Assembly (NCBI GenBank): GCA_951813565.1
Contig: OX638351.1
Location: forward strand, 4,000,001 to 4,064,000
Origin: an uncultured Poribacteria bacterium
GTDB lineage: Bacteria > Poribacteria > WGA-4E > WGA-3G
Direction of reading: 5' to 3'
DNA length: 64,000 bases
Shown here one piece after another: positions 20,091 through 60,154 of the stretch. The stretch's first letter is position 1, and the number at the start of each line of letters is the position of its first letter. The translations under genes were made by a program, and so were the position numbers. The notes beneath the pieces were generated by a model, which worked only from the letters and a program-made list of their open reading frames with translations, ran no database searches and had not been told where the DNA came from.

Positions 20091-20296
20091 TATAGTGGAT
20101 TTTACAATTAACTGGACATTGTCACTCGGCACGGACAAAGTGTTCTACAGTTTTAAAGTCGCGACCTGGAGGTCGCTCCCGCCAAATACCAAACGCGTAT
20201 TTAGCGTTGATTCACAAGAAGAGGCGCAATGAATTGCGCGACTACAAACGCAGCAACCTATAAAGAACTGTCCAAGTAATTTTAGATTTCACTATA
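20091..20296. mobile_element. MITE-like element with imperfect TATAGTG...CACTATA termini, carrying REPs
   Basis: Terminal inverted TATAGTG/CACTATA plus inner ACTGGACA/TGTCCAAGT. Related termini at 42563-42738, ~11095 and ~50617. Confidence 0.5.
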
Positions 20297-20378
20297 AATA
20301 TAACAGGTGAAAAATGACTACGGATATCAGTTTGGAGACATGAAACAGTATATCCTTGCAAACAGAAGGAGTTGTCCG

Positions 20379-21113
20379 ATGACAGGTGAAGAAAAATTTA
20401 AGGTAGACCTTGAAGGGTATCTGATAATTAAGAACGTATTGACAGACGATGAAGTGGCAGAGATGAACGCCTTTATTGATAAAGGTGAAACGAATAGACG
20501 ACCAAGTCTTTGGGGAGAACCGTTCAGGAAGTTAATTGACCATCCGAGAATCCTGCCATATCTTATTGAGTTGTTGGGCCCGAATGTTCGTCTGGATCAC
20601 GATTACGCCATTTTCATGGACACAGGTAGCAAAAGAGGTGGATTGCACGGTGGTGAAGACGGTGGACACGCCCGTGGAAACGTGGGGGATCACTGGTATA
20701 AATATCGGGACGGTGTGATGCGAAACGGATTATGTGTAATGACCTACAATTTGGCGGATGCTCCTGAAGGTGCAGGCGGATTTGCGTGTATTCCAGCAAG
20801 TCACAAAAGCAACTTTGCTCCAGAAATTCCGAGAGAGGTTAGACTCTTTGAGCGTCCAGCACATTATGTGGTTCAACCACCGCTTGAAGCAGGGGATGTA
20901 CTGTTTTTCACTGAAGCACTTATCCACGGCACAATGCCATGGACAGCAACGCATCAGCGCCGTGCTTTGCTATACAAATATAGTCCGGGACATTCGGCTT
21001 GGTCAGGAAATTACTACGACATTAGCCAATACGGTGAGTTGACTGAACAACAGAAGCGGATGCTCTTACCACCATCTATAGGTGGAAGACCTCGCGTTGT
21101 TGAACAGAAGTAA
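20379..21113 (+). CDS. PhyH-family Fe(II)/2-oxoglutarate oxygenase (copy 1)
   Basis: EGYLIIKNVLT, LHGG, AGDVLFFTEALIHG and RRALLYKY; start MTGEE after an AAGGAG RBS. Confidence 0.85.
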   Translation: MTGEEKFKVDLEGYLIIKNVLTDDEVAEMNAFIDKGETNRRPSLWGEPFRKLIDHPRILPYLIELLGPNVRLDHDYAIFMDTGSKRGGLHGGEDGGHARGNVGDHWYKYRDGVMRNGLCVMTYNLADAPEGAGGFACIPASHKSNFAPEIPREVRLFERPAHYVVQPPLEAGDVLFFTEALIHGTMPWTATHQRRALLYKYSPGHSAWSGNYYDISQYGELTEQQKRMLLPPSIGGRPRVVEQK

Positions 21114-21153
21114 TATTAACTGGTAACGATCACATTGAAAGGAATTAACATTC

Positions 21154-21888
21154 ATGACAGGTGAAGAGAAATTTAAGGTAGACCTTGAAGGGTATCTGAT
21201 AATTAAGAACGTATTGACAGACGATGAAGTGGCAGAGATGAACGCCTTTATTGACAAAGGTGGGATGCAAGGACCTCCAAGTCTATGGGGAGAACCGTTC
21301 AAGCGCCTCATTGACCATCCGAAAATCCTGCCATATCTTATTGAGTTGTTGGGCCCGAATGTTCGTCTGGATCACGATTACCCTATTTTTATGAATAGTG
21401 GTGATGGACGTGGTGGGCTACACGGTGGTGAAGATGGCGGGCGTCCGGGCGGTCCCGAAGGGGATCACTGGTACAAGTACCGTGACGGTGTGATGCGTAA
21501 TGGATTATGTGTTATGACATATAACCTCGCTGATGCTTCAGAAGGAGCAGGTGGATTCGCTTGTATTCCGGGAAGCCACAAAAGCAATTTTTTGAGAGAA
21601 ATCCCACCAGACGTTCGCAACTTTGAGCGTCCAGTACACTATGTCGTCCAACCAGCCCTTGGAGCGGGGGATGTACTGTTTTTCACAGAGGCTCTCGTTC
21701 ATGGTACAATGCAGTGGAAAGCGGAGCATCAACGTCGTTCTTTGTTATATAAATATAGTCCGGGACATTCGGCTTGGTCAGGAAATTACTACGACATTAG
21801 CAAGTATGGCAATTTGACCGAACAGCAAAAACGGATGCTTTTGCAACCATCAATTGGAAAGAGACCACGCGTCGTAGATACGAATTGA
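21154..21888 (+). CDS. PhyH-family Fe(II)/2-oxoglutarate oxygenase (copy 2, tandem paralog)
   Basis: Highly similar to the preceding gene. Confidence 0.85.
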   Translation: MTGEEKFKVDLEGYLIIKNVLTDDEVAEMNAFIDKGGMQGPPSLWGEPFKRLIDHPKILPYLIELLGPNVRLDHDYPIFMNSGDGRGGLHGGEDGGRPGGPEGDHWYKYRDGVMRNGLCVMTYNLADASEGAGGFACIPGSHKSNFLREIPPDVRNFERPVHYVVQPALGAGDVLFFTEALVHGTMQWKAEHQRRSLLYKYSPGHSAWSGNYYDISKYGNLTEQQKRMLLQPSIGKRPRVVDTN

Positions 21889-22305
21889 GAATGGCTTTCG
21901 GTTATAGCTGCTGTCACCTGTCGTCCCGCTGGAGCTTGTATCTGGAGGTATCACGTTCTATATACATTCCGCCCTCTTGCGCTATACACATTCATAAAAT
22001 CGGATTCATGTCCTTAAGTTGACAGTTATGTGTTTCGCTTCGCTCTACCCAACGGACAATATAAACTTTCAGTAACAATCATCAACTGATAATTCTTAAA
22101 ACTAATTAATCCTAAATCGCATTATTACATTTCGTTTTTTAATTGGCACAAACTTCCAACTATGAAATAATAAGCAAGGTCAGGTTTCTAATATCAGAAT
22201 TTAGTTTAGAATACTTGACTTCATGTGGTTTTTGGATATAATGAAAGACTTGATACTAAATTCATTTTTCAGCGTTAACGTATTTGGGAGAGGTAGCAAC
22301 ATAAT

Positions 22306-23392
22306 CAGGACTTACGCATTTTTATAAAATGGTGTATACTATTCTATTATGATTACATTTTCCCACTCTCAAAAGAAGGAAAACCTATTTTCCGATTATT
22401 GTCAGTTTTTGATAGCAAGTGTCACGAATTGGACACAAACCTACTTTGCTGCTCGGACAGAAAAATGGAGCCACGATCAACTCAATCGTTTCTTGAGAAA
22501 TGAAAACATTTCTTCAAGCGAACTCTGGCAATCCGTAAAGGATGACATTGAGTATGATGAAGGATACATAGTTTTTGATGATTTTGTGCTTCCTAAACTC
22601 CATGCCAAAGAGATTGAAGCCCTTCGTTCTCAATGGAGTGATAGCGACAAAAAAGTCGTTGTAGGCATCGGTATTGTCACGTGTCTTTATGTCAATCCAA
22701 AGACGCAAGAATATTGGATCATTGATTATCGTATTTTTGACAAAGATCATGATGGTAAAACCAAAATAGACCATTTACTGGAAATGTTGCACAATGTCTA
22801 CTTGAAAAAACAACTCCCGTTTCGGACTGTGCTCATGGATGCTTGGTATGCGTCAATGAAAGTCATCAAAGCGATTGAAAAACTTTCCAAGATTTACTAT
22901 GTGCCTCTCAAGCGTAATCGTCTTGTCAATGATACGGATGGTGTTGAACAACACCAACAAGTCCAAGATTTATGTTGGACCCAAACAGAAATACGACAAG
23001 GAAAACGAGTGCACATCAATAAGTTTCCAAATGGACATCAAGTGAAGTTGTTCCGGATAGCGTCCTCTAACGGACACACGGTATATATCGCTACAAACGA
23101 TTTATCTCAATCAGATGCGGATGCCACAATCCAAGAATGTAAAGTGCGTTGGAAGATTGAGCAATTTCATCGTGAGATCAAACAAGTCACTGGTATTGGT
23201 AAATGTCAATGTCGCAAGTTGCGTGCGCAAAGAAATCATATTGCGTGTTGTTTTCAAGTATGGGTCTGTTTGGCACGCACTGCCCGTGCAGTTGGTAGAA
23301 CAATTTATGAGCTTAAAGATAGCTTATTGGACGATTATTTACGACATCAACTCTCAAATCCTTCAATAATCTTCAAGACTGCGTAAGTCCTG
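22306..23392 (+). mobile_element. IS701-family insertion sequence (transposase 22349-23386)
   Basis: TIR CAGGACTTACGCA at both ends; DDE motifs FDD, MDAWYA and RWKIEQFHREIKQ. Confidence 0.85.
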
Positions 23393-23398
23393 GAGAAA

Positions 23399-26383
23399 TT
23401 AATTTCGTGCTTCAGGAGTGACTTTAAGTTTCACCTGTTTCCCATCACGCATCACAACGATCTCAACTGGTTCACCAATTTTCACAGCATCAAGGGCATA
23501 GGTTAAATCATAGATATTTTCAATCTTTTTCGTGCCGAGTTCAACGATGACATCACCGCCCTTTAAACCTGCTTTATCTGCAGGACCGCCAGCGACAACG
23601 CCAGAGAGTTTAACACCAACGTCTTCAGTGGTATAATCAGGAATAGTCCCCAAATATGCACGTAACGTTCCACGACTTCCCTGCTCAGGCTTGTTCCGCT
23701 CCACTTTTACGTATTCTGGTCGCGTGTCCGCGCTAATTAGGTCTGAAACAATCCCATAAGCCAGACTTGAGATACGTTCCAAGCCAGCATAGTTGAGGGT
23801 TTCAGCATCATCTGTCGGACGGTTATAGTTCTTGTGTAAACCGGTGAAGAAACTGAGGACAGGAACGTTTTTCGGATAGAAGGCTGTCACATCTGTTGGC
23901 AGATACGGGTCTTTTTGTAGTGCCAGATTAAAACCGACAAGCACATTACGTTTTTCAATTAACTTTGTCCAAATAGGTGAAGATCCGATACCTTGCAGGA
24001 CAAGCTTATTTTTACGGAGACGTCCCACCATATCAAAGTTAATGTAGGCAGCAACATCGTTTAAAGGAAGCACTGGATCATTTACAAAATGAGTAGACCC
24101 AATGAGTCCGAGCTCTTCACCCGACCATAACGCAAAGATAACGCCTCTCTTAAATTTTTCTGGCTGATTTTGACGTTCTTCACTAAACATCTCTGCTAAT
24201 TTTAATATAACAGCAGTGCCTGAAGCGTTATCATCAGCACCGTTATGGATTTGTCCTTTTTCTTCATCTTTCGCGAGTGATCCAATCTCTCCATAGCCGA
24301 TATGATCGTAGTGTGCACCAACGATGATGTATTCACTGTCTTCAATCTGATGGGTTGGCGGGAGCATCGCGAGGACATTATTATCCGTTTTCTTAATCTT
24401 TTCAATGGAAGCAGTTATCTTGATTTTGACATCGGGTAACGGAAATTGTCCGACAAAGTGCGGATTCTCGTCGTCAAGTCCAGTTTGAACCTCTTTCAAG
24501 TTTTTGCCTGCTTGTGCTAATAGGGTATTTGCTACAGTATGGGTAATAGAACCAGCGACTATGCCAGAATCAGCACTGCCACTGTCAAAATTAAGTGGGA
24601 TTATCTTACCTGCGTTTGGTGAATTCGGACCGGCAACGGTAAGGAACGCTTTTGCACCGTTTTCCCGCGCTTGCACTGCCTTATAGCGGATTCCCGCATA
24701 CCGAATCAATTGCTGTCGGCGTTCAGCCTTCACGCCTTCTGGAACGTAGCGAAGTGCGACAACAATCTTATCCTTCACATCTATACCAACATAAGAATTA
24801 TATCCTTCGCTTGTTTCTCCAGGGACGACTAACCCATATCCAACAAACACGACTTCACCCTCAACGACACCATTGCTTGAAAAAGAGAGCGGTAAAAAAT
24901 CATGCTCTACCTTGAATTCAAGTTGCTCTTCAGACTTCTCTATTTTGCGTGTGATATGGAAACGGTTTTCATTTGGTATAATTTTTCTGCCTGCTGTGAA
25001 CTCAAAAGTTTGGAAATAACCGCCTTCCTCACCAGCAGGTTGGAGGTTGAGTTTGGTAAATTGATCAACGATGTAATCTGCAGCGCGTTTTGCACCTTTG
25101 GAACCGGTCATCCTACCTTCTAAAGCATCGTCTGCCAAGAATTCAACGTGCCGCTGAATACTGCCTTTGATTTCATCGGCAAAGTCGGTAAAAGACGAGT
25201 CGGGTTCGGACTCCTCTACAGCTGGTTCTGGAGTTCTTGAAATTGAACGCCTCGGTGAAATAGCGATTGCTTCTAATGCAGCTTCGTGATCCCACGATGC
25301 AAGATAGAGTTGCGAAACATTTTGATTGTTACGGTTAGATGTCCAACACAAGCGGTTGCCATCTGGTGAAAAAACAGGCAGTCCATCAAAACCATCAGTC
25401 GAGGTAACTTGAACGGGTTCATGTCTTCCGTTTGCGTCTACGAGATATAACTCAAAATTGGAAAATCCAAGTTTGTTAGAAGCAAAAATTACATAAGCTC
25501 CACTTGGATGAAAATAAGGTGCCCATGACATGCTATCGAAATCTGTCAAACGTTTCACACCTGATCCATCCAAGCGCATTGTATAGATGTCTGCAGTGCT
25601 TCCATCTTGTGAAAAATGCCGCCAGACGATATGTTGCCCATCAGGTGTAAAGAAAGGGCCGCCATCGTATCCGGGTGAATCTGTCAAACGTTTCTGGTTG
25701 GAACCATCAGCATTCATGATATAAATTTCACCGAAATATGCAGGATCAACTTCAAGCTGCTTGAGGTCCTTTGGGGAGAGTTCGCTTTTTGGATATGCGT
25801 CCCGCAGCGAGCAGAAAACGATATATTTTCCATCAGGTGAATATGAACCTTCAGCATCATAGCCATGCGCGTCTGTCAGCTGTGTTAGATTGCTTCCATC
25901 ACGGTTAGCGGAGAAGATGTCCATCGCTTCATCGTAATCCCAGCTATAGCGGCGTTCTTTGCCAGATTCTCGGAAATTGAGTTCCTCCTCCTGCTTTGCT
26001 TGCGCAAATACATCGTGATGTGTGGAGGCGTAAAGCACTTCATCGGAACCAGGGCGAAAGAAAGCGCACGTTGTTTTTCCAACACCAGGTGAAACGCGAT
26101 GCGTATCTCCTGTCAGTAGGTTGAGAAGATAAATTTGATAGAATGGGTTGTCCGGTTCGCGTTCACTTTGAAAGATCAGTGCGTTTCCATCTTCAGAGAA
26201 ATAGCCTTCTCCAGCACGTTTCCCGTCATAAGTGAGTTGTCGGATATTACTTAGAAATCGTGCCTCTCCAGCAGACTTGGTATCTGTTTCGTTTCCAGTA
26301 GCATCAGGTAATTCCGCGTTACTCGTTAGAGAAACAGCAATCAATATCGCGGATAACAGACTGATCCATTTGATGCGGTGCAT
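23399..26383 (-). CDS. secreted M28 peptidase with PD40/TolB-like propeller, PA and PDZ domains
   Basis: PFFTPDG repeats, GAHYDHIG, NGADDNASG, SGEELGL and C-terminal PDZ GPADKAGLKGGD. Confidence 0.9.
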   Translation of the reverse strand: MHRIKWISLLSAILIAVSLTSNAELPDATGNETDTKSAGEARFLSNIRQLTYDGKRAGEGYFSEDGNALIFQSEREPDNPFYQIYLLNLLTGDTHRVSPGVGKTTCAFFRPGSDEVLYASTHHDVFAQAKQEEELNFRESGKERRYSWDYDEAMDIFSANRDGSNLTQLTDAHGYDAEGSYSPDGKYIVFCSLRDAYPKSELSPKDLKQLEVDPAYFGEIYIMNADGSNQKRLTDSPGYDGGPFFTPDGQHIVWRHFSQDGSTADIYTMRLDGSGVKRLTDFDSMSWAPYFHPSGAYVIFASNKLGFSNFELYLVDANGRHEPVQVTSTDGFDGLPVFSPDGNRLCWTSNRNNQNVSQLYLASWDHEAALEAIAISPRRSISRTPEPAVEESEPDSSFTDFADEIKGSIQRHVEFLADDALEGRMTGSKGAKRAADYIVDQFTKLNLQPAGEEGGYFQTFEFTAGRKIIPNENRFHITRKIEKSEEQLEFKVEHDFLPLSFSSNGVVEGEVVFVGYGLVVPGETSEGYNSYVGIDVKDKIVVALRYVPEGVKAERRQQLIRYAGIRYKAVQARENGAKAFLTVAGPNSPNAGKIIPLNFDSGSADSGIVAGSITHTVANTLLAQAGKNLKEVQTGLDDENPHFVGQFPLPDVKIKITASIEKIKKTDNNVLAMLPPTHQIEDSEYIIVGAHYDHIGYGEIGSLAKDEEKGQIHNGADDNASGTAVILKLAEMFSEERQNQPEKFKRGVIFALWSGEELGLIGSTHFVNDPVLPLNDVAAYINFDMVGRLRKNKLVLQGIGSSPIWTKLIEKRNVLVGFNLALQKDPYLPTDVTAFYPKNVPVLSFFTGLHKNYNRPTDDAETLNYAGLERISSLAYGIVSDLISADTRPEYVKVERNKPEQGSRGTLRAYLGTIPDYTTEDVGVKLSGVVAGGPADKAGLKGGDVIVELGTKKIENIYDLTYALDAVKIGEPVEIVVMRDGKQVKLKVTPEARN

Positions 26384-26515
26384 CTCAATTCCTCCATTTT
26401 GGTTTAACTTTATATGAGGGCGTGCATAAATATTTGGCGCATCAACACAGACAGGGACAGACGCCAGGTGCCGCTTGATTTATAGAAATGCGTTTGTAGT
26501 CGCGCAATTCATTGC

Positions 26516-26644
26516 CAAATCAACGCAGCATGCGCCAAATCAAGAAATCAACGGTATGAATCATGGCGAATGCCAAAAGCGCATTCGTCTTTAGTCATTC
26601 ACCGGGTCCGAATGCCTTATGGCATTCCCCGTGTGGCATGCTGC
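26516..26644 (+). repeat. nested AATCAAC-hairpin micro-elements inside a GTAG REP
   Basis: The REP GTAGTCGCGCAATTCATTGC|GCCTC is split by this insert. Empty REP at 20221-20245 and ~59855; single 34-bp insert at 50766-50799. Confidence 0.75.
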
Positions 26645-27196
26645 GCCTCTTTGAACTTGTGGACGGAAACCCACGGCGTGTGCGGACTACCTTTAAGCGC
26701 ATATTTAACATCGGAATTATTTATGCACACCCCTCACTTTATTATAGAATCCTTTTTGAGTTCGGTAATTGTGCAGTATGTCGTAGGTTGGGTAGAGCGG
26801 TAAACAAAGTACTATTGTGTTTCCACGGAGTGTTACTATATATTCAGGAGCATTCGCATGGTTAGATATAGCGAAACCCAATCAACGCTATGAATGCCTT
26901 TTGGCGGAATACGCTTTTGGTATTCCGCATGATTCAGCCAAATCAACGTCAAATGCGCTTTTGGCATTTGGCGGGTGTCAATTTAGCGGTTCGCCACCTT
27001 AGTAGGCGCGTTTGTAAACGCGCCGTTAGACAATCTTTAGCACAGATATAGCGCGTTTACAAACGCGCCTACCTTTGGGTAATAAATTGGGCTTAGAAAG
27101 CCCTCCCACAAGAAAATCAGGCACTAAATTGATGGCTGTGGGTTCTACTTCGTTCAACCCAACCTACACGCTCTCACACTCAAATTATTGTACTTG

Positions 27197-28048: not shown

Positions 28049-28127
28049 TTTTTGTTATTCTCCTTATCGTCTATTTTTTGGTAGTTTAGCACAAATTGCA
28101 AAGCACTTCAACGTGAATGTATCAGGT

Positions 28128-28284
28128 GGGTGTGTAAAGTTTTTGTAGAAATCCGCACAACTCCTATTGTAGGGGCGGGTCTCCGGGGAATGCCTTATGG
28201 CATTCCCCGGGACCCCGCTCTACAGTGGAAAACGCCGCGTAATCATTGCAAATTGAACCTATGTAACCAAATATTTACACACCC
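28128..28284. mobile_element. MITE sharing ends with the ISKra4-like IS, 9-bp TSD
   Basis: TIR GGGTGTGTAAA; flanked by the direct repeat GTATCAGGT (28119-28127 and 28285-28293). Confidence 0.85.
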
Positions 28285-28315
28285 GTATCAGGTCATTTAG
28301 CGTAGAAACTATGTA

Positions 28316-44413: not shown

Positions 44414-44486
44414 AATTGGGTGTCTCCGTTTGTAATGGTAGAACGACCACCTATATTATATAGTTCTTTGTTCGTTTACTAAATAA

Positions 44487-44964
44487 ACGTGAGTTTGATA
44501 ATTAGACTTAAATGTAGATGTCCGTTGGGTAGAGCGAAGCGAAACCTATAGGCGTCAATTTAGTGCCTGATTTTCTTGTGGGAGGGCTTTCTAAGCCCGA
44601 TATTGTGAGACTCAAATCGTTATATCGGGGTTGAAAACCCGCAGCATGCCAAACGCGCATGCTGCGTTGATTTGGACAAATGCCAAAAAGCGCATTTGGC
44701 GTTGATTTGGCAGCATGCCAAACGCGCATGCTGCGTTGATTCGCTCCCACAATAGGATATATCCTAAAATTGACGCCTATGAGTAGAGCGAAGCGAAACC
44801 CAACAATTCAACCGTCTTGGAAGTAATTTAAAGTTGAGTTTCACTCATTTTCCTGTTATTTCGGCATCAAATGGAGAAAAAATCGCTCTTTTATGTCCGA
44901 TTTTTTGTTTATTCCGTTCTACCCAACGGACAGTGGTTATTGAATTTTATTATCAAACTCACGT
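44487..44964. mobile_element. MITE with ACGTGAGTTTGATAA TIRs containing nested elements
   Basis: Same TIRs as 48186-48345. Contains an ATAGGCGTCAATTT-TIR element (44548-44780), REPs and a micro-element trimer. Confidence 0.75.
44641..44742 (-). repeat. tandem trimer of 33-35-bp AATCAAC-hairpin micro-elements
   Basis: Units at 44641-44674, 44675-44709 and 44710-44742; the homologous uninterrupted REP region is at ~48509-48578. Confidence 0.8.
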
Positions 44965-45003
44965 TAAATAACCTAAGTTGCTACCTATGTAGCACAAACT
45001 TTA

Positions 45004-45116: not shown

Positions 45117-45376
45117 TTTAGTTTGTGTCATAAGGGCGCAAACTGAAAGTGCTATCAACGGTATGAATGCCTTAATGGCATTCCCCGTGCTACAAAATCT
45201 ATGCTAATAGTGAACTATCCGATTAAAAAGGTGTTTTTTATGTCAATTATCTTGTAGGTAACAACTTGAGTTAAATAGGTAAGGTGGTTTGAGCAAAAAT
45301 GCTAATGAAACAAATGAGTATTAATGAGATACGTTCTGGTTAACGTTTCGGTTTCTGCTATCTTCAAGAATTACGC

Positions 45377-46818: not shown

Positions 46819-46870
46819 ATTTGCATTGTATCATAAGAGGTAAATTGATGTCAAGCCGATCCCGAACACC

Positions 46871-48468: not shown

Positions 48469-48752
48469 ATAGGTGTCAACTTAAGAAAAAAATGCTGGCT
48501 TATCTCTTGTGGGAGGGCTTTGAAAGCCCGATTTTTGAGACTCAAACCGTTATATCGGGGTTGAAAACCTTCTTACAAGAGATGATATAGTTAATGCCAA
48601 ATATTTACACACCCATTTACTTGCAAAGCATTAAGACCAATCGTGTAGCGGAAGAACATAATTTGGTTTAAACGAATCAATTATTATTTTTTGCGCTCCC
48701 TAAAGTCGGATTATGGTATAATGATTTCAGGATTAGTATAAGATTATGGAGA

Positions 48753-49805: not shown

Positions 49806-50577
49806 AGCAATAACCCAACGTCGCAGCTATCGTGGTGAATTTCAGAATCGTCCAATTGATGAAGCTGACCAGAATCGGTTGATTGAGGCGGCGCGATGGA
49901 CACCTTCCCCTTTTAACGTTCAACCATGGGAGTTAGTGATCATTCAAGAGGCTGAGGGAAAAGAGATACTGGCCGATATAACTCAACAAGCAATTATTGA
50001 ACAGTTCAAAGATTCCAAGTTTTTGGACGACAATAGCCGATGGATGTGTCTAAACGAAACAGAATGGCAAGACCGTGGCGATGGTGTTCTACTGAAAGAC
50101 CATGTTACCCTACCGAAATTGCTTCAAAATTGCCCTGAGAAACTGACAGGCAGCATATTGAAAGGGTTGTTAAAAAATGCGAAGTCGTTGGCGATTGTGG
50201 GGCATTTAGGCGCAGGTAAAATGCCTGCAAAGGAAATTGCTACACAAGTACGCGAAGCGCCATTGTTAGTATTGGTTACGATGAATACCGAAAGGTGTCC
50301 ACCGGGTGAAGGGGCAACCCGATGGATGTGGCTGAGCATGGGGATGTTAATACAGAATATGCTTCTCGCTGCGACATCGCGTGGTATCGGTGTGCAATTT
50401 GTCAGTGCGCCTTTAGAAAGCGAAGCGGATCGCGAAAATATCCGCCAACTTTTCAATATCCCTGACTATCATGAGGTAATCACGCTATTAAGGATAGGTT
50501 ACGTAAGTTCGGAGGGTGGAAGTTCTGTCAGGTTAAAACCTTCAGAGTTTGTTCATCATGAGAAGATTTCGAATTAG
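49792..50577 (+). CDS. nitroreductase family protein
   Basis: AITQRRSYR, ARWTPSPFNVQPW and QNMLLAATSRGIG. Confidence 0.88.
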   Translation: MNVFEAITQRRSYRGEFQNRPIDEADQNRLIEAARWTPSPFNVQPWELVIIQEAEGKEILADITQQAIIEQFKDSKFLDDNSRWMCLNETEWQDRGDGVLLKDHVTLPKLLQNCPEKLTGSILKGLLKNAKSLAIVGHLGAGKMPAKEIATQVREAPLLVLVTMNTERCPPGEGATRWMWLSMGMLIQNMLLAATSRGIGVQFVSAPLESEADRENIRQLFNIPDYHEVITLLRIGYVSSEGGSSVRLKPSEFVHHEKISN

Positions 50578-50920
50578 GAACTACTCTTGTAGGAGGGAGA
50601 CTTTGTCCGACCGATTTATGGTAGATTTTACAATTAACTGGACATGGTGATTCGGTGTTCACAAAGGGTCATATAGCTGAGGGGTGTGCATAAATAATTC
50701 AATGTCAAATTTATGCTTAAAGGTAGTAGGCACGCGCCGCGTGCCGTAACCAAATTCAAAGAGGCGCAGCATGCCACACGCGCATGCTGCGTTGATTTGG
50801 CAATGAATTGCGCGACTACAAACGTATCAAAAAAAGAAAATGTCAACTTATCTTTATACTTCACGATATAGCGATACTACATTCCAGAAAACCGAATATA
50901 TCTGCTTGAGAAAAAAGCAG

Positions 50921-51937
50921 TCATACACCATCTGTAATCAACTCTTCATTATAGGCAAACAAAGCAGGCGTTCCGCCAGTATGTAGGAATATAACAGTAT
51001 CGCTTGAATCAAATTTACCTTGTTTGATATGGTCTATTAGGCATGCCATTGCCTTAGCAGTATAAACTGGATCAAGAATTATACCTTCCGTGCTTGCTAC
51101 CAATTTGAGAGCGGAGATACACTCAGGAGTTAGATATCCATAAGCGTCCCCAATGTAATCATCGGTATTTTGGATATCAGAATCGTTGATTTGGATATTA
51201 AGTTTTAAGATAGAAGCCGCAAGATTTGCAGCATCGCGTATCCGATCGATCTTACCTTCCCAATGGATAGGCGCGCAGGCAAAAGGTTTTAATTTTATTC
51301 CAAGTGCTTTAGTACCAAGCACCAAACCTGCTTGAGTTCCACCTACCGAAGCGGTATAGATCCAATCAGCATCAATCCCGATTTGTGTTTGCTGTTCATG
51401 AATTTCAGCGATGCACCATGTAAATGCAACTGCTGCGAGTGCAGTGGAGCGAGGCGAGGCAATAACATAAGGTTTTAATCCGTCTGCTTTCAATTTCTCA
51501 GCAAGTTCGAATTTGAACTCCTCTAATTCTGGACCAAACGGAATATCGACAACTTCAACATCCGCACCTGCCAAATGGTCTAACAAAAGATTACCTTGCA
51601 CGATACTTTTATGATCGCGTGCGAGGCGTAGATAGCAGTTCAACCCAAGCTTACTACAAGCTGCGGCAGCTTGTCGACAATGGTTTGATTGCGAAGCGGC
51701 TCCCTGTATAATCGTATCCGCCCCTTGATCCACACCTTCACCGATTGTAAAAGTCAATTGTCTAACCTTATTTCCACCAAACGCTAATCCAGAACAATCT
51801 TCACGTTTTATGAAGATGCGTGGACCACCAAGTGCTTCAGATAGGCGCGGACATTCTTCAAAAGGAGTGGGAAAATGCCCTATATTAACTTGTGGGATTT
51901 GGGCGATACGTTGAAGTAGGTTTTGTCTGGTTATCAC
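50921..51937 (-). CDS. D-cysteine desulfhydrase / ACC deaminase family PLP enzyme
   Basis: KREDCSGLAFGGNKVR, QSNH, LDPVYTAK and FLHTGG. Confidence 0.9.
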   Translation of the reverse strand: MITRQNLLQRIAQIPQVNIGHFPTPFEECPRLSEALGGPRIFIKREDCSGLAFGGNKVRQLTFTIGEGVDQGADTIIQGAASQSNHCRQAAAACSKLGLNCYLRLARDHKSIVQGNLLLDHLAGADVEVVDIPFGPELEEFKFELAEKLKADGLKPYVIASPRSTALAAVAFTWCIAEIHEQQTQIGIDADWIYTASVGGTQAGLVLGTKALGIKLKPFACAPIHWEGKIDRIRDAANLAASILKLNIQINDSDIQNTDDYIGDAYGYLTPECISALKLVASTEGIILDPVYTAKAMACLIDHIKQGKFDSSDTVIFLHTGGTPALFAYNEELITDGV

Positions 51938-51940
51938 ATC

Positions 51941-53626
51941 CTACTCCGCTTGAACCACGACAGCATTTTGGATAACCCTTTCTCCGTCTTTTGATTGCAA
52001 ACCTGGTGAGACAACCTCAACGATTGTATCGGATTCAAATTCGCCGCTGCGTTTCTCTTTGAGTTCATGATACTGAGGAGAGAATTTCGTTTTACCTGGC
52101 TCAATCGGCATTAACTCATAATCAACCAAATCAAGAAACCAGTTTAACCTTGATTGTACCATGTTGAGCGAACTGAACTCAGCAACATTTGGAAAGATTT
52201 TATCTCGTATAAACTCAACCAAAAACTTTTTGAATGCTGGGATTTTAACTTTTTCGGCATGCTTCTGTTCCAAGGCAGCCAACTTTTCAGAAAAACGTTG
52301 GAGGTAAGTATCACAGTCTTTCTGAATATCCATCAAATCTTTGTCGGTTGATGCAGTTCTATCGGGAAAGAGGGTAGGTGCTGGCGCCTTAATACCTCTT
52401 GTGTGTTTTAGAGTTTGCTTGAGTTCATTCTCAATAGTCTCAAGAGATTTGGCGAGAGTGTCTTTAGTTGTGTTTCCTTTTTTTGCAGCCTTTTTCCATT
52501 CATTTACCTCATTGACCATTAGATTCAGGAGTAGAACAGCAGTCTGTTGTTCATTCAGCGCTTCTATGTCCCAATTTTCAAGTGAAATCCCACATCCATT
52601 GTTGTAGTCGCTTTCTAATTTTTCCAAAGTAGCATGAAATTTGTCATATAAGTGTCGGTTTTGCTGCACATAATATTCCTTTTTCTTAGGGAGAGTGAAT
52701 CCGAATGTACCCGCTAATTGTCCAAATAATCCATCTTTTTTCCCATTAGATTTTGATGTAGAGGTAGCACGCGGCGGTATAAAAGTCGCTTGCTTCTTAG
52801 ATGCACTTTTTGGTAATGATGGCACTTTGATTTTAAATTGTAGTTCGGAATTTACGCTCGGAATGTAATGACCTATATATTGTGTTTTTCGTTTTGGATT
52901 CTTAACATGTTCATTACTGGAGCCGGATTTTGGTGGGATAGGTGCTACCTCAGGCTTTTCTTCCAGTGTCGTTTCACCCGGTATATATTCCTGTTGTACT
53001 CTGTGGTTTCCATCTCCGTTTGGAGTCACATCTATGTCTTGTAGTTCTAATGATGTGGGCTCATGAAACTCTGGTATTGTATTGTGTTCAACATCAATAT
53101 TTTCCTCAAAGTCCGGATTTTCAGGGGTCTGCAGGTTTGATAGTGTCGTTGCTACTTCAGATTTTTGTTGTGATGTTTTATCATACAACCCATTTTCTTG
53201 TTCGTAGGTTTGATGGTTAAACTCGTCTTTTTGCACTTGTTCAACTTCGGGATATAGAGGCGTCTGTAGTTCTGCCTCGTATGCCGAACTTTTTGGCTGA
53301 TTATCCATCAATCGTTGGTTTTGAATCTGCTTTAATTCTTCTAATATTTTTTCAGTATAAGTTGAAATTGGTTCATGATTGTCAACGTAAAATGCCAATT
53401 TGTGTGACTGAATTACCTCAACAGGGACTACAACCTCTTGTGTTTGTCTCGATAGTTGAAAAGCGGTCCAATTTACGCGTCCACTGAGTGGCTGCTGTTG
53501 GAACATCACGCGTAAACGTCTACCGTCTTCAGCTTTATTTAAAACACTCATGACAATATGGGGGCCGTTATATGTAAAACTTACCTCAATATCCCGAAAA
53601 CTACCAGTTACACTGCTTGCTGCCAT
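51941..53626 (-). CDS. large hypothetical protein with C-terminal GrpE-like domain
   Basis: C-terminus FSPQYHE...TIVEVVSPGL...VIQNAVVV; long low-complexity central region. Confidence 0.6.
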   Translation of the reverse strand: MAASSVTGSFRDIEVSFTYNGPHIVMSVLNKAEDGRRLRVMFQQQPLSGRVNWTAFQLSRQTQEVVVPVEVIQSHKLAFYVDNHEPISTYTEKILEELKQIQNQRLMDNQPKSSAYEAELQTPLYPEVEQVQKDEFNHQTYEQENGLYDKTSQQKSEVATTLSNLQTPENPDFEENIDVEHNTIPEFHEPTSLELQDIDVTPNGDGNHRVQQEYIPGETTLEEKPEVAPIPPKSGSSNEHVKNPKRKTQYIGHYIPSVNSELQFKIKVPSLPKSASKKQATFIPPRATSTSKSNGKKDGLFGQLAGTFGFTLPKKKEYYVQQNRHLYDKFHATLEKLESDYNNGCGISLENWDIEALNEQQTAVLLLNLMVNEVNEWKKAAKKGNTTKDTLAKSLETIENELKQTLKHTRGIKAPAPTLFPDRTASTDKDLMDIQKDCDTYLQRFSEKLAALEQKHAEKVKIPAFKKFLVEFIRDKIFPNVAEFSSLNMVQSRLNWFLDLVDYELMPIEPGKTKFSPQYHELKEKRSGEFESDTIVEVVSPGLQSKDGERVIQNAVVVQAE

Positions 53627-53993
53627 CCCTAAGTCTCCTTTTGCAAGAACTGCATTCGCAAAATGAATTTGGTATCTACCTATTACTATATGCGATTTTA
53701 AGAGGGGTCCGAACGGTGTACTAACCTACCCAAGTGTGTGCTATAGAACCGTTCGGACATTAAGGAATACAAACGCTATAAGTGCCCATATCATGTTGGC
53801 AACTTACGCTGAGAATACATTATGGAAACAGAACATTTGCGTATCGCATTCCATCTCTATTTATACATTTTAACGTTTGCAATTAATTATGGGTTACAGA
53901 AACGCTTTTATAAGAAATATATTTATTAGAGTTTTTGAAGTAGAAAAAGTGAAGTGAAGGGTGTCTTTATCCTTTTAATCTCAGCAAGGGGCA

Positions 53994-56900
53994 TTAATGC
54001 TGTATAACCATTTTCCGAGTGGCTGAAAAATTGCCCGCAGTGAGCGTATAAAAATAGATACCGCTCGCAACAGGTTCACCCAATTCATTTCGTCCATTCC
54101 AATGGACAGTATGTTTCCCTGATCGTTTATAACCGAGAAATTGATTGGACACTAAACGGCCATTTGCATCATGGATTGAGAGCGTGACTTGCGTGTCTTT
54201 AGCAAGTGAGTAGGGAATCCAAGTTTCGGGGTTAAACGGGTTGGGGAAGTTTTGGAAAAGTTGATTGTGGACAACTATTGTGGAAAGTGTTGGTTGATAT
54301 CGTTCATTGTGTTCTGGTTCTTCTACTGCAAGGTTCAAAAGGTGTGTGTTGACACGAAAGACACTGAGTTGGTATAGATCGGTGACATATAGTGCAGAGC
54401 CAGAGACTGCAATGTCAGTTGGTGACTGTAGTCGTGAATAGCGTGCGCTGAGACGCATCGTGCGCGAGTCGATAATTTGAAGCGTATCACTATCAAGCAA
54501 ATAGAGATAATGTCCCTGAATCGCTGCAGCAATAGGCAGTTGCGTTTCAACATAGCTTGCTAACAGCGTAAGCTGCTGAGGGTCTTTCCCATCTAATTTT
54601 AAAACACCTTGATGGCTATCCAAGACATATACAAATTCACCAGCAAGACATACATTTGTTGCTGTGCCTTCTGTAGTGAAGTGAGCAATTGGATGGGGAA
54701 GTGCTGGTTCAGAAATATCTAAAATGTGGACGCCACCTTCAAGTGCAGCAACATAAGCGTTTGAGGTGTTAAAATCAATTTTATATGCACTACCTATGAA
54801 CTCGCGTTGGGAAACAATTTGACTGCGTTTCGGTTCGCTAATGTCAACTACAATAAGAGACTTCGCACATAGATAAGCATAATCGTCAATTATCGCAATT
54901 CCCCAAACAGGGTTTGTAGTGTTTATATGTGTGAGAGTTTTTCCTGTTTCCAGCTCAACAATTTCCATTCCCACATCCGTGCCAACGAAGGCGTGTTCCT
55001 TCTCAATCTGAACACTTAGCACTCCTTGATCACTTGAAAAAGCGCGGATATCTTGCGTAATTTTACCGTTGTAAGAATCAGTCATTTCAGCTATTTTTAA
55101 TCCGCTGGTGCCGTTTGCTATAGCAATGGTAGTTTTATCACCGTCGCTGCTTACATCAAGCCCATAAGCAATGCCGCTTGCATTATAGTGATTTATCCAG
55201 ATTGGAATGTCAGGCTTTGTAACATCAAGAGTTTGTATACCCCCTTTTCCATCTGCAATATATGCATAAGTTGTCTTCTCTGCAGCCGAATACCGTAGTG
55301 CGATATCTTGTGCATTGCCAACAGTAGGATGCGATGAAATCAAGCGTGGAGTATTTGGATTATTCACATTAATAATGTGAAGACCGGACTGCTCATCTGT
55401 CAGGTAAAGTGCCCCTTCGTAGAACTTCACCCCTGAAGTCAAACCCGGTGTATTCACCTGCGAAATTGGTTCTGGTATTATAAGGGGACCGATATTCAGA
55501 ATGCGTAGATCACTGGAAATGGTGAGCGCATATTTTCCAAAAATCTCAAAATCAAGTGCAAGCAATGGAACAGTGCCCGTAACCGTAAATCCGCCAAGCG
55601 GGTCCGGAGTCAAAATGTATAATCCCCGTGCATTATCGCTTAAATAGATGGTTCCTTCATCATTTGTTGAGACTTTAAAAGGGGTTCCTGCTGTTTTAAA
55701 AGTTCTTCGCGGATGTGGATTTTCACTGTTGAGTACATCCTGTTCTGTGAAGACCAAGAGTCCACGAACTGCATCAAGTGCGTATAGGTTTCCGTTTGCT
55801 AAATGTACATCGCGTGCATCTTGAAACCCTCCAAGTGTTTTGACAATGCGGGGCAAAGTTGGTGGATTGACTTCAATAAGATGTACTCCTGATTCACCAT
55901 CTGCAATATAAACAACATCTCCATCAATGGCGATGGCTTGCGCGTTCCCCGGTGTCGCAATTTCACCTATCCGTGTCGGTGAAGGGTTTAATGTAAAAAT
56001 TTCAAGTCCCCAATCGCTTGTAGCAAAAGCATTTTCTTCTTGAATAACAATCTTGTTATAGTTGCTTGAGAGATGGATTTGGGTCATCGGTTCTAATTTT
56101 GTGGAGTGATTCGATGGGATTAAGGAAGTTCCCAAACGGCGTCCTAAACTTATCGGTTGCGAATTATTACCAGAGAGATGCGTTACTGAGTTAGGATACA
56201 AAAGGTATCGAGATTGTTCTATATTCCTTTGGGATATGTTTGTCGATTCTCCTATATCAATTCCTGCATCTCCTGTGCCAGACTTAGCAATATATTGAAA
56301 CGTTTGGGGATATTCGGAGGTGACGATTAACAGAATCTGTGCCTCACGATTTAAATTATCAATTTCGATCTTGTGCGTATGAGGTGTAGCTGCAGCATTC
56401 GGTTCTGATACGGGCGGAATGGGTTTGATAACTGAAAGGTTCGTATTCGGTGCAAGATATGCTATGTTGGCGTACAGGCGTGCTTGTGAGTCTGCTTGTA
56501 GCATGAGTTCAATGTTTTCAGGCAGATTTTGAAAGAGAACATACTGTGTTCCCCAACTATCAATTGTAACTTCGTCAGAAGTTGTTGGATAACGTGTAAT
56601 GCGTGGGGTCTGTGCTGTAATTTTTCGATTGGGCAGGTTCAGATAACTAAAGGGTTTTCCTCGCCTGGGATCGTTTAACCAATTTGCAATTCCCCAATTG
56701 AAGAATGCATCAACGAAATGTCTGTTTTCCCCTAAAGTTACGTCAATAGCGGACAGACCAAGTGTATCTTCCGCGGCAAGTTGGCGAATAAAGTTAATAC
56801 CTCCGTAGTTTTCATAGAGGTAAAGGAGAAGCATAAACGCCGCGCCATAATAGATATCCGTATTATTGGCAGTCGTTAGTGACATAGTAGGGTTAGCGAG

Positions 56901-57659
56901 GTAATTATCAACGAATAGTGTGTGGACTGTCCCATAGATACCCCATTCTGTAAAGGACGCAATGCCTTCCTCTAACCAACGCTGATCGCTTGTGCCACCA
57001 TTCTGATACCAATTAATAAGATGTGCAAATTCGTGTGTAAGACTACTATAGAAGGTATGCCGAGAACGTTCTTTGAACTGGAATATATCCATATAGAGCA
57101 TATCGCGGCGATTACTCGTTGGGTATGTGGGATGCTGGTCGGTAGGAGAGAAATAGCCACCGTAATCCCGTCCTGAAGCGTTCATGCCGACATCGTGGAA
57201 TAAGATAGTTATTCTGTTGTCGCGGTCTAAACCGGGTTGAAGTTCTGAACCAATCCAGTGATGTACTTTAGGATAAATATTCGTGTCAAACGTATTGGCA
57301 ACTGCAACTGCCTCGTTTTTAGTAAGCATATCCGAAACAGTGTTTTCGATGTAAATATAACAGTGCACGCCTACTGCAACACAGGTGGCTTTGACAGACG
57401 TTTCAGGAATGTGAATAAAAAATCGGTCTATTTGTCCTAATTTTGCAGGTGCTGCGGGTGCTGCCAAAACCCTCTCAGCGTTTGTCGACTTAAAATCTTG
57501 AATTAACGGTGAGTTTTCAATTAACAACGGAGTACCGCACTTCCAAGGATCCGCGTGAAGAACGGAAGCAAAACTACAGAACCATGCAAGAAAAGAAATT
57601 ATACAGGCTATCGCAAAATTTCGTCGTATTAAGGGGTGAGTGTATAAAGCTTTTGACAT
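53994..57659 (-). CDS. secreted zinc metallopeptidase-domain protein with LVIVD repeats and FlgD-Ig/Por-like C-terminal tail
   Basis: Signal peptide, HEFAH...WLEEG, repeated AYIADG/LDV..P units and NFPNPFNPETWIPY...TRKMVIQH. Confidence 0.82.
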   Translation of the reverse strand: MSKALYTHPLIRRNFAIACIISFLAWFCSFASVLHADPWKCGTPLLIENSPLIQDFKSTNAERVLAAPAAPAKLGQIDRFFIHIPETSVKATCVAVGVHCYIYIENTVSDMLTKNEAVAVANTFDTNIYPKVHHWIGSELQPGLDRDNRITILFHDVGMNASGRDYGGYFSPTDQHPTYPTSNRRDMLYMDIFQFKERSRHTFYSSLTHEFAHLINWYQNGGTSDQRWLEEGIASFTEWGIYGTVHTLFVDNYLANPTMSLTTANNTDIYYGAAFMLLLYLYENYGGINFIRQLAAEDTLGLSAIDVTLGENRHFVDAFFNWGIANWLNDPRRGKPFSYLNLPNRKITAQTPRITRYPTTSDEVTIDSWGTQYVLFQNLPENIELMLQADSQARLYANIAYLAPNTNLSVIKPIPPVSEPNAAATPHTHKIEIDNLNREAQILLIVTSEYPQTFQYIAKSGTGDAGIDIGESTNISQRNIEQSRYLLYPNSVTHLSGNNSQPISLGRRLGTSLIPSNHSTKLEPMTQIHLSSNYNKIVIQEENAFATSDWGLEIFTLNPSPTRIGEIATPGNAQAIAIDGDVVYIADGESGVHLIEVNPPTLPRIVKTLGGFQDARDVHLANGNLYALDAVRGLLVFTEQDVLNSENPHPRRTFKTAGTPFKVSTNDEGTIYLSDNARGLYILTPDPLGGFTVTGTVPLLALDFEIFGKYALTISSDLRILNIGPLIIPEPISQVNTPGLTSGVKFYEGALYLTDEQSGLHIINVNNPNTPRLISSHPTVGNAQDIALRYSAAEKTTYAYIADGKGGIQTLDVTKPDIPIWINHYNASGIAYGLDVSSDGDKTTIAIANGTSGLKIAEMTDSYNGKITQDIRAFSSDQGVLSVQIEKEHAFVGTDVGMEIVELETGKTLTHINTTNPVWGIAIIDDYAYLCAKSLIVVDISEPKRSQIVSQREFIGSAYKIDFNTSNAYVAALEGGVHILDISEPALPHPIAHFTTEGTATNVCLAGEFVYVLDSHQGVLKLDGKDPQQLTLLASYVETQLPIAAAIQGHYLYLLDSDTLQIIDSRTMRLSARYSRLQSPTDIAVSGSALYVTDLYQLSVFRVNTHLLNLAVEEPEHNERYQPTLSTIVVHNQLFQNFPNPFNPETWIPYSLAKDTQVTLSIHDANGRLVSNQFLGYKRSGKHTVHWNGRNELGEPVASGIYFYTLTAGNFSATRKMVIQH

Positions 57660-57729
57660 TAGGAGCCCAAATTCCTTATAATGGGTATTATTTTTTTCTT
57701 GTTTTAGCTATGATCAAATATATAAAACT

Positions 57730-58149
57730 ATGAAACCTTTTGAATACATTGAACATACTGCAGATGCGGGAATGCGTGTTAGTGGAAAAACGTTACACTC
57801 TCTCTTTAATCATGCCGCACAGGGGGTATTTGAAATGATTGCTGTTGTGGACACAATTGATGAAACCTTATCAATTGACGTTGACATTGTGGCTGAATCT
57901 GTTGAAATGTTATTTGTTAAATGGTTAGATGAATTAATTTTCAGACACGAAACAGATGAGATTTTCTTTAAGCGATCGAATATTCGGAGTATCAGTACTA
58001 CAGAACTGTCTGCTCAGGTGTTTGGCGAACCCACAAATTTCGACAAACATATCGTTTATACAGAAATTAAGGCTGTAACCTATCATCAGTTATATGTAAT
58101 TCAAAATCCCAACGGTATTTGGGAAGCGCAAGTTATTTTTGATTTATAA
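57730..58149 (+). CDS. archease
   Basis: FEYIEHTAD, WLDELIF, EIKAVTYH and terminal FDL. Confidence 0.93.
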   Translation: MKPFEYIEHTADAGMRVSGKTLHSLFNHAAQGVFEMIAVVDTIDETLSIDVDIVAESVEMLFVKWLDELIFRHETDEIFFKRSNIRSISTTELSAQVFGEPTNFDKHIVYTEIKAVTYHQLYVIQNPNGIWEAQVIFDL

Positions 58150-58183
58150 TTGATCTTGTGGAAAGCAAATAACACATTAGGTT

Positions 58184-59962
58184 TTACAACTTTTCTTTTA
58201 CGAGAATCACCTGATTCGGTTTGACATCTTCAAATTTATTTATTTTTCCACTGGGCCAAAACACCTCAATAGTTTCAATAATCTCGTCTTTTTTTATTCC
58301 GAAGATTGCTGTCAGTTCGCTTTGAGAACAGTAACTTGAACCACTTTTAACAGTTTGCGTTTGTGTGCCAGTGGCGGAAGTAATTCGGATGCGTGCGCCT
58401 ATACCGTTACGGTTACTCAATCGTCCAAGAAGTTGTATTTTAATCCAACTGTTGCGGTTGCCACCATCATTACGGTATAGATGCACTTGCCCATTGGATG
58501 TGGTAACAAGTATATCTAAATCCCCGTCATTATCTATGTCACCGTAGGCTGCACCTCTCCCGACAATCGGTTTTGCTAAATCTGGCCCTACCTCGTGAAG
58601 AACATCAGTGAACTTTCCATCGGAGACATTGTGAAATAGGTGTGGTCGTTGTGCGTATGTAACTTCACTCTGGACGATGTTTATGTCAGTTTCGACATGC
58701 CCGTTTGCCGTAAAGATATCCAAATGTCCATCTAAGTCAAAATCGAAAAAAAAGCAGCCAAAGGTAAGCGTCAATAAAGTTGCCTTTCCGAGTTGGGCAA
58801 CTGGTGCATCGTCAAGAAAAAAATCACCTTCGTCGTGGTAAAGATTCAACATTTCATTGGAAAAATTACCGACGATGAGGCTTTCTCTACCACTACGGTT
58901 GTAGTCAGCGGCATCAACACCCATTGCACCGGTGGCAACGCCGCTTTCATTATACGCTACGCCAGCCAGCATCCCGACTTCAATGAAAGTGCCATCGCCA
59001 TTGTTTTGATAGAGTTTATTCGGTTGTGTGTCATTTGCTTCAAAGATGTCGGGTAAACCATCTTGGTTGTGGTCCAAGATGCAAACACCTAATGATTTAC
59101 TTGAGGAGTCGCTTATACCTGATATACCAGAGACATCCAGAAATGTGCCATCGCCGCGATTTCGAAAAAGTTTACTCGCTTGACCAGTATATGATTCGGG
59201 CGTACAATAGGATTTGTTTTTACCATCAAGAGTGCAGAAAATGTCTGTCTCTATACTCCACTCAACGTAGTTTGCCACATATATGTCGAGGTGTCCATCC
59301 AGATCATAATCGAACCATGCACAACTTGTTCCAAAACCTTGATTATCAATTCCTGCGGTTTCAGTCACATCCAGAAATGTGCCATCTCCCTTGTTTTGAA
59401 ATAATTTGTCAGCATTCAGGCAACTCAGATAAATGTCATTATCTCCATCGTTATCGTAATCCGCTATTGCAACGCCCATACCGTAGAGTGGAATATCTAA
59501 GCCTGCATCTTCGGTAACATCGCTGAAGCTACCATCCTGATTGTTGCGATAGAGTGCTAAGGTTTGTCGCTTTCCAGTTGAGTGTCCTTTCCAGTCTTTT
59601 CCATTAACGAGAAGGATGTCCTGCCACCCATCTGCATTGTAGTCAAAGAATGCACAACCTGATCCCATTGTTTCTGGTAAATATTTCTTCCCGAATGCTC
59701 CATTATTATGGACGAAGTCTATCCCCGCTGCTTGAGTGATTTCAGTGAATTTGGGCAGTGGATTTGCAGATACGCTCGCAATTGTAAGAAAACAATAAAG
59801 CAGCACTATAATACCATTTCTAAATAATAGCTTCTCATTAACAAAAATGCGTTTGTAGTCGCGCAATTTATTGCGCCTCGGACATTCATCTAAAAATTTG
59901 TTACACAATCTCATAAATGGGAGTTTCTTTATTGGAATTGGTATAACTTTCAATTTTTTCAT
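58184..59962 (-). CDS. CRTAC1-family protein (FG-GAP/VCBS repeats + ASPIC/UnbV); true start probably downstream of 59962
   Basis: DYNADGWQD/DYDNDGDND repeats and a C-terminal ASPIC-UnbV segment. The first ~40 predicted residues overlap a REP at ~59855. Confidence 0.85.
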   Translation of the reverse strand: MKKLKVIPIPIKKLPFMRLCNKFLDECPRRNKLRDYKRIFVNEKLLFRNGIIVLLYCFLTIASVSANPLPKFTEITQAAGIDFVHNNGAFGKKYLPETMGSGCAFFDYNADGWQDILLVNGKDWKGHSTGKRQTLALYRNNQDGSFSDVTEDAGLDIPLYGMGVAIADYDNDGDNDIYLSCLNADKLFQNKGDGTFLDVTETAGIDNQGFGTSCAWFDYDLDGHLDIYVANYVEWSIETDIFCTLDGKNKSYCTPESYTGQASKLFRNRGDGTFLDVSGISGISDSSSKSLGVCILDHNQDGLPDIFEANDTQPNKLYQNNGDGTFIEVGMLAGVAYNESGVATGAMGVDAADYNRSGRESLIVGNFSNEMLNLYHDEGDFFLDDAPVAQLGKATLLTLTFGCFFFDFDLDGHLDIFTANGHVETDINIVQSEVTYAQRPHLFHNVSDGKFTDVLHEVGPDLAKPIVGRGAAYGDIDNDGDLDILVTTSNGQVHLYRNDGGNRNSWIKIQLLGRLSNRNGIGARIRITSATGTQTQTVKSGSSYCSQSELTAIFGIKKDEIIETIEVFWPSGKINKFEDVKPNQVILVKEKL

Positions 59963-59989
59963 TAAGGACTCTGAAAACGGTTATTTTAA

Positions 59990-60154
59990 TAGGACTTACG
60001 CAATTTTCACGGTTTTTCCAATAATTATGACTCAAATGATGTAATTTTCAGCAGAATTCAGAGTTCTCAGCGCGTTTACAAAACGCCAAATCAAGAAATC
60101 AACGGTATGAATGCCATTTAGACATTCCCGCCTACCGTTTGTGCGTAAGCCCTG
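59990..60154. mobile_element. MITE with the IS701-element TIRs
   Basis: AGGACTTACGCA ... TGCGTAAGCCCTG; contains a REP split by a micro-element (60087-60129). Confidence 0.7.

Follow-up and report, generated by a model that had tools for sequence, protein, structure and literature searches.

Tagged hairpins of 33–36 bases form a genus-wide family of very small mobile insertions in uncultured Poribacteria

A 64,000-nucleotide stretch of the genome of an uncultured Poribacteria bacterium (contig OX638351.1, positions 4,000,001 to 4,064,000; hereafter the window) contains short DNA units that consist of a fixed 7-base tag, AATCAAC, and one hairpin, and that lie in and beside the repetitive extragenic palindromic (REP) sequences of this organism. 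The window lies within a source genome (G000) assembled as a single contig of 5.43 Mb, to which the counts below refer unless another collection is named. These units are genuine and make up a family of minute mobile insertions that extends across the genus and is of a kind that is poorly known. An original prediction, made from the sequence of the window, had described them as discrete mobile inserts that also enter each other, and this description is borne out by presence and absence in unique genes, by different units at one site and by self-nesting. That the units are genuine repeated insertions can be stated with high confidence.

Single units measure 33–36 bases and composites reach more than 200 nt. 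Genome-wide, 955 starts of a tag followed by a hairpin arm are grouped in 564 clusters, and two search patterns recover 618 un-nested units (467 A-type and 151 B-type), 590 of which are retained by a stem filter. The A unit has a 9-bp stem with an asymmetric loop. In the B unit the core is 7 bp long, and an internal loop lies close to the base. The AATCAAC foot is present in 372 of 455 A-like hairpins and in 134 of 242 B hairpins. Module C, the third type, lacks the tag and consists of an A-like hairpin that ends in an ATG tail; it makes up 53 of the 455 A-like hairpins, is never joined with a tag and is found only in the arms of A or B units (in the window at 26906–26931 and about 26562–26589). 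The units are mostly extragenic, with eight of the 618 pattern matches falling inside long open reading frames (ORFs), and an Rfam scan of the window gave no match at the gathering score.

The link between tag and stem is not due to chance: 404 of 2358 AATCAAC sites lead directly into a stem in which no fewer than 8 of the 9 pairs are Watson–Crick, against 0–7 stem-followed sites for each of nine control heptamers (682–1593 sites each). It had been noticed that stems differ between units and keep pairing, and 72 variants of the A-type stem indeed give 566 Watson–Crick cells out of 648, with alternative pair types at positions 1, 3–6 and 8. Single units fold with z scores of −1.9 to −4.0 relative to shuffled sequences. 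The paired stem changes are no proof of selection, because strand switching can also yield them. An excess of A–C over G–T stem pairs (36 vs 14) is lost for variants found in multiple contexts (10 vs 5), and the spectrum of rare stem variants is balanced (C>T 20, G>A 20); no active strand is therefore claimed. The orientation of the units is 52% leading, in a genome with weak GC skew where an IS605 positive control is equally unbiased.

Genes of unique sequence provide the decisive evidence, which favours insertion over mere co-amplification. In a lipoate-ligase-family gene, an in-frame 36-bp B unit is present in three of 25 orthologues (G000, G006 and G052) and absent in the remaining 22. In an ISAs1 transposase gene, one and the same site carries three different units (36, 35 and 36 bp) in three species (G000, G048 and G014), with 19 loci empty and three loci lacking coverage of the site. 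Moreover, an empty paralogue with 22+22 matching flank bases has been found for 280 of the 618 units.

The contexts of the units point in the same direction. In one REP loop, six different dinucleotides precede the tag (TA 8, GA 8, CG 7, CA 7, TG 2, AA 2), whereas the empty loop of the same type in G000 reads GA in 64 of 67 copies. It is the number of junction forms, and not their counts, that serves as evidence, because metagenome loci may repeat one organism. The units fall into 77 left-context and 66 right-context families. Host miniature inverted-repeat transposable elements (MITEs) inflate the copy number: 25 of the 62 filled sites of one REP type (REP1) lie in one MITE family, and empty and filled copies are mixed in only four of 125 host-context groups. 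Several MITE families of G000 carry REPs, and in a tandem REP array at another locus (L226, periods of 52/86 bp) filled and empty copies alternate.

Units nest in three places: within A-unit loops, at the 3′ foot of the unit before them, which produces tandems, and at their own tag/stem boundary, which produces doubled tags. The tandems are direct, with unlike neighbours in 69 of 89 pairs. Left contexts of 21 kinds have been counted for the doubled-tag (long-tag) composite, which makes it likely that composites move as a whole. Recursive peeling of the nests with a strict energy cut fully resolved 219 of 681 loci, and has been used here for examples rather than for counts. In four of the metagenome loci (L339, L398, L400 and L402), the B hairpin is preceded by a run of two to four partial tags, and such tag multimers are consistent with repeated insertion at the tag/stem boundary. 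At six other loci (L320, L325, L338, L350, L393 and L412), B units lie within short tandem repeats of the CAGGATT type.

The two ends of the units behave differently at the junctions. The hairpin end is fixed. Among 477 units that have no tandem tag behind them, 458 continue with G, as do 32 of 33 site families, and the pairing partner of this G is the final C of the tag. Another G comes next in 22 of the 33 site families, for a background of 23% G in the repeat DNA. The tag end varies by 1–2 bases (CA, G, TG, CG, GA, TA, AG). A clean insertion can be read at C|G sites (104 of 280). Other sites show replacement of target bases, the G of the unit occupying the place of a different base in the empty allele: at one, empty copies read TAG (227) or TGG (16) and filled copies TG-unit-GG (13); at another, empty copies read ACG (213) or AAG (2) and filled copies AGA-unit-GG (31); at a third, empty copies read CAG (106) or CGG (4). 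At a further site, TT is lost in 20 filled copies. Overall, zero to two target bases are replaced and no target duplication is seen, in agreement with the earlier remark that no clear long target site duplication (TSD) is present. The simplest single rule would be that the unit includes the G and replaces 1–2 target bases. The original prediction also proposed that most units follow GC inside a palindrome arm. This stands for five junctions of the window and fails at 20213, 26879, 44742 and 28185; genome-wide it describes one subset only, because sites also lie in loops, at stem feet and in the GTAG tag itself, in addition to arms.

The family is widespread in the genus. With a strict pattern, units are detected in 22 of 24 genus genomes and in none of 16 genomes from other families of the order; with a looser pattern, they are present in 38 of 39 other genus genomes, in 1 to 382 copies each. 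In a partial scan of the species collection (5 of 64 parts), 114 of 116 loci belong to records titled Poribacteria; a single match in Psychromonas had no flanking signature and has been taken as chance. A further 124 metagenome loci match the B pattern, while viral contigs yielded no match to the A pattern. Short-read contigs break at the units within the window, and at most units overall, as they would if the units had been created by assembly or by long reads. The probability of such an artefact is negligible. At L307:18361 a nested unit is spanned by contigs from four of four public runs, although some of these runs may have been the source of the assembly. The units are therefore no artefact of assembly, and the genus-wide and metagenomic occurrences argue likewise. 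In the same region, a single-copy segment of 183 bp (L307:12977-13159; G000:C1:1872976-1873158) is absent from the contigs of runs X6 and X9 and present in those of X5 and X8.

Within the window, the nine stretches listed originally are present as described at their coordinates, with small corrections (Table 1). The REP near 59855 is empty, as had been noted, and differs by one base from the exact REP1 sequence ascribed to it. The filled and empty sites at 60087 and 27051 hold as a pair, with one extra A in the filled host and a unit that ends one C short. At 28185 the sequence is present and lacks the AATCAAC tag assigned to it; it is likely a fused or strand-switched derivative. The insert at 45153 is a unit with a variant of the expected tag. 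The predicted nesting at 26516–26644 is confirmed and resolves into four layers: an outer A unit (26516–26535 and 26631–26644), a B unit (26536–26543 and 26605–26630), a second B unit at the tag/stem boundary of the former (26544–26604) and, innermost, a C module, a type that had not been set apart.

Table 1. Units and host repeats in the window (positions 1 to 64,000).
Feature	Positions	Strand	Remark
Right halves of a nested A+B pair, truncated, ahead of GCCTC	10140..10173	-	
A-type unit (G-AATCAAC + hairpin) in the GTAG tag of a GTAGGAGCGA REP	20181..20213	-	
Empty host REP1 (GTAGTCGCGCAATT family)	20221..20245	-	
Host MITE-like repeat bearing REP1 and nested units	26409..26746	not set	Ends approximate; 32 long paralogues
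Four-layer nest of units	26516..26644	+	
B-type unit with nested C module (26906-26931: hairpin + ATG tail)	26879..26938	+	
A-type unit, tandem at the 3′ foot of the B-type unit 26879..26938	26939..26972	+	
Empty host REP (GCGCGTTTACAAACGC family)	27051..27072	+	
Tagless perfect palindrome, centre of a GTAGGGGCGGG REP	28185..28208	not set	Two B-unit right arms
Three tandem A units (two stem variants) in a GTGGGAG-GGGTTTTCAACCCC REP	44641..44742	-	
B unit, short tag variant TATCAAC, in a GTAGCAC REP arm	45153..45186	+	
Single 34-bp A unit in REP1	50766..50799	-	
Empty REP1, 1-base variant (ATTTATT)	59855..59879	+	
Long-tag B unit (doubled tag) in a GCGCGTTTAC REP arm	60087..60129	+	

The unit at 20181 illustrates base replacement, with the target A exchanged as TGTAGG becomes TGT-unit-GGG. 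Genome-wide, REP1 is represented by 128 empty sites in addition to the filled ones. The REP that holds the three tandem units at 44641 is itself part of a MITE-like repeat (about 44486–44971). The intergenic region orthologous to that of the single unit at 50766 measures ~117–119 bp and has neither REP1 nor unit in five close relatives. More broadly, the intergenic region 50577–50921 is about 370 bp long in G000 vs 39–122 bp in most relatives, and unrelated repeats are inserted at the orthologous region in G002 and G020. As for neighbouring genes, a CRISPR locus just before the window (G000:C1:3988994-3996440) comprises an array of 54 repeats and, adjoining cas1, a reverse transcriptase of 465 aa that forms a separate protein, and a Cas10-like gene lies in the window, where part of a CRISPR locus occupies 7156–9690. 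Elsewhere in the genome, L048 (G000:C1:811737-813281) is a DRT4-like defence reverse transcriptase.

The enzyme that moves the units can be named only tentatively. The candidate that we favour, with somewhat less than even confidence, is a RAYT-type HUH enzyme (REP-associated Y1 transposase) acting in trans on single-stranded DNA (ssDNA). Units would be moved in single-stranded form by this hairpin-binding nicking enzyme into sites in or beside other hairpins. The target strand would be nicked after C (the complement of G-G), the hairpin end would be joined or primed at the nick, and the tag end would be resolved imprecisely. After insertion, host MITEs and REPs would spread the filled sites to more loci, and strand switching would homogenise the stems. 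G000 has five IS605-type TnpA genes and five other Y1 genes. One Y1 protein, L010, scores above the NF047646 cut-off as a REP-associated tyrosine transposase, and its gene is flanked by inverted GTAG REPs of the type invaded by units, one of them filled; the host REPs are thus of RAYT type. Y1 genes are found in 36 of 40 genus genomes, and the sole unit-free genome has none. The Y1 proteins of the genus (L128-L167, L001-L010, L099-L127) form six clusters, with distinct flanking REP types among the clusters listed. Furthermore, the opposite strand of several sites that lose bases reads C^T or C^A. In the available portions of the corresponding studies, TnpA-REP is described as cutting at C^T (PMC3333891), and for Marinomonas C^A sites and, with GTGG as the guide, CC sites are cut as well (PMC8266576).

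Several observations weigh against a RAYT-type mover. No Y1 match was obtained in three unit-bearing genomes, of which one is assembled as a single contig and holds 45 units. Among 74 Y1 loci with an HUH frame (79 were fetched, of about 146 matches listed), none has units on both sides of the gene and seven have a unit within 400 nt. The number of Y1 genes does not follow the number of units (rho 0.12, p 0.46, for related and thus not independent genomes). The HUH mover of the original prediction stays plausible, while the tie to an enzyme gene flanked by the units does not appear at any of the 74 loci. The second G is absent in 11 of the 33 site families, so a C^N nick fails to explain all sites. 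IS200/IS605-type strand transfer is precise, whereas target bases are lost here. No joint between read contigs that skips exactly one unit, as expected for gain or loss between strains, is found among the joints listed; this is no evidence of fixation, because contigs break at repeats and the joints are listed in part. Finally, the units are devoid of the GT[AG]G tag that TnpA-REP needs, as far as the accessible text of two studies describes (PMC3333891, PMC8266576).

Other routes of movement have been considered. Another ssDNA nuclease, either Ssn-like with a GIY-YIG domain or an unrecognised small nuclease possibly lost from G000, might cleave the DNA a few bases ahead of the tagged hairpin, after which host repair would copy the freed piece into nicked hairpin sites through G-G microhomology. 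We regard this as unlikely, even though it would account for the variable tag end and the G-G preference. The anatomy of the units also matches that of Ssn substrates, which, in the part of the source available, combine a hairpin, a conserved orienting upstream sequence and a key base just past the palindrome, and are cut a few bases upstream at a position that may shift by one base between homologues (PMC11893778). However, the GIY-YIG proteins of G000 (Pfam PF01541, rather than cd10448, as the profile; E<=0.001) are all of the 249–627-aa class, the small GIY-YIG proteins of the genus have no tblastn match in G000, and the 20 GIY-YIG loci that were retrieved, out of 182 matches, all lacked unit flanks. 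DUF559 is absent from G000, none of six Uma2-like genes is near a unit, and 48 ORFs between close unit clusters include no dedicated small nuclease, as judged by eye from their N-termini. A conserved GIY-YIG protein of ~122 aa occurs in 12 genus genomes (L289-L300) and is absent from G000, and at L287 (G055:C21) a 92-aa GIY-YIG gene lies directly upstream of a 525-aa reverse transcriptase. It is rather improbable that there is no dedicated mover at all, and that the family goes back to a few ancient insertions, whose number was raised by the MITEs and REPs that hold them and whose sequences were varied by gene conversion and by strand switching during replication. The MITE family that holds many of the filled REP1 sites would fit such a history, as would the strand-switch products of G000 (12 units with a tag on both sides and nine tagless perfect palindromes) and the ability of strand switching to generate compensatory stem changes. 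It is opposed by the units in two unrelated protein genes without a host repeat, with three different units at the one ISAs1 site, and by the many left-context families and the six junction forms at a single loop.

Copying through RNA is less probable still. A short transcript or processed RNA would be reverse-transcribed at a nick (target-primed), leaving a precise 3′ end and a ragged 5′ end. The junction asymmetry and the G-G microhomology could fit target priming, and G000 does encode the two reverse transcriptases mentioned above, beside cas1 and of the DRT4-like type. However, reverse transcriptases are found in only 18 of 40 genus genomes, are missing from the high-copy genomes G006, G012, G048, G017 and G049, and show no correlation with the units (rho 0.00). 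Units between co-directional genes have no significant sense bias (151 vs 182, p 0.10), the tag strand has no G-U excess, and the three CRISPR arrays of G000 are without units, one spacer having the tag without a stem. IS110, which would offer a bridge-RNA route, is absent from all 40 genus genomes. Mobilisation by the IS605 TnpA of G000, with the unit as a one-hairpin derivative, is very unlikely. This family is abundant, with five TnpA copies and over 100 TnpB elements and derivatives, yet the insertion sequence ends seen carry neither the tag nor the stems, and the units have no fixed target tetranucleotide and lose bases at the site. The more than 100 IS605/TnpB-related copies include internally deleted derivatives of about 420 bp.

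The units had not been recognised as a described class. A class of like kind exists, and the closest one described is, to judge from descriptions, that of the small dispersed repeats (SDRs) of Nostocaceae (Elhai et al. 2008, Genome Res 18:1484). SDRs measure 21–27 nt, nest in their own copies and also occur in tandem heptamers. We know of no mover for SDR-like elements. The accessible parts of four reports describe SDRs as about 20 bp long, possibly mobile and, for SDR5, precisely inserted in HIP1, and mention SDR-like repeats only in Nostocaceae among HIP1-rich cyanobacteria (PMC4390886, PMC2884548, PMC5861425, PMC3116915). As far as these descriptions go, both families are very small, dispersed, structured and located at exact points in other repeats; the units, like SDRs, also nest in their own copies. 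The Poribacteria units differ in their length (33–36 nt, with composites >200), in their fixed 7-nt tag, in the replacement of 1–2 target bases and in belonging to another phylum. No description of such units for Poribacteria was found in the literature, mainly among freely accessible journals.

The units belong neither to REPs or REPINs, nor to MITEs, IS200/IS605 derivatives or SRMs, when judged by the features that define these classes. MITEs have terminal inverted repeats, whereas one end of the unit is an unpaired tag, bases are lost and no TSD is made. The non-autonomous derivatives of IS200/IS605 (PATEs) have hairpin-defined ends and no TSD, as the units do, whereas the units have one hairpin instead of two ends, no fixed 4–5-nt target, and 1–2 target bases replaced. 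Guide-directed cleavage in IS200/IS605-type systems is described in the available part of one study (PMC6006769). With REPs and REPINs, and their RAYTs, the units share, according to the portions consulted of five studies, a 20–40-bp imperfect hairpin, a conserved 5′ foot, hundreds of copies and a mostly extragenic location (PMC3116915, PMC3333891, PMC8266576, PMC6006769, PMC3733652). However, the units have no GT[AG]G or CGTC at the foot and are passengers inside REPs. In contrast to REPINs and REPtrons, they occur singly (in unique genes) and in direct tandems, without inverted doublets, and flank none of the Y1 genes examined. The NTS/SRM repeats associated with Ssn likewise have a hairpin with a conserved orienting upstream sequence and are abundant in symbionts, and the accessible text presents no demonstration of SRM mobility (PMC11893778); no Ssn-like gene was found in G000 or beside units at the 20 genus loci examined. 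The GC clusters of yeast mitochondria (GC42) are, in the part of the source available, also mobile palindromic units of ~40 nt that merge, with flanking base changes tied to their presence; they are organellar and flanked by AG/ACT direct repeats, whereas the Poribacteria units are bacterial and without duplication (PMC4478555).

It is possible, if doubtful, that the units are one-hairpin transposons, in which a single stem and a 7-base tag (33–36 bases) would suffice for pick-up, for nested cargo of more than 100 bases and for pasting with 1–2 target bases swapped. They would then represent a REP-parasitising class with its own junction chemistry, of which the SDRs of Nostoc may be another instance. 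In a major sponge symbiont, the units swell intergenic DNA and, where in frame, give proteins inserts of 12 codons. The spread of REPs and of repeats below 50 bp is an old open question, for which this family offers substrates of 34 bases with a defined sequence, natural target sites by the dozen and a testable junction signature (a fixed G end, a variable tag end and base replacement). A minimal signal for ssDNA insertion would also be of interest for genome editing.

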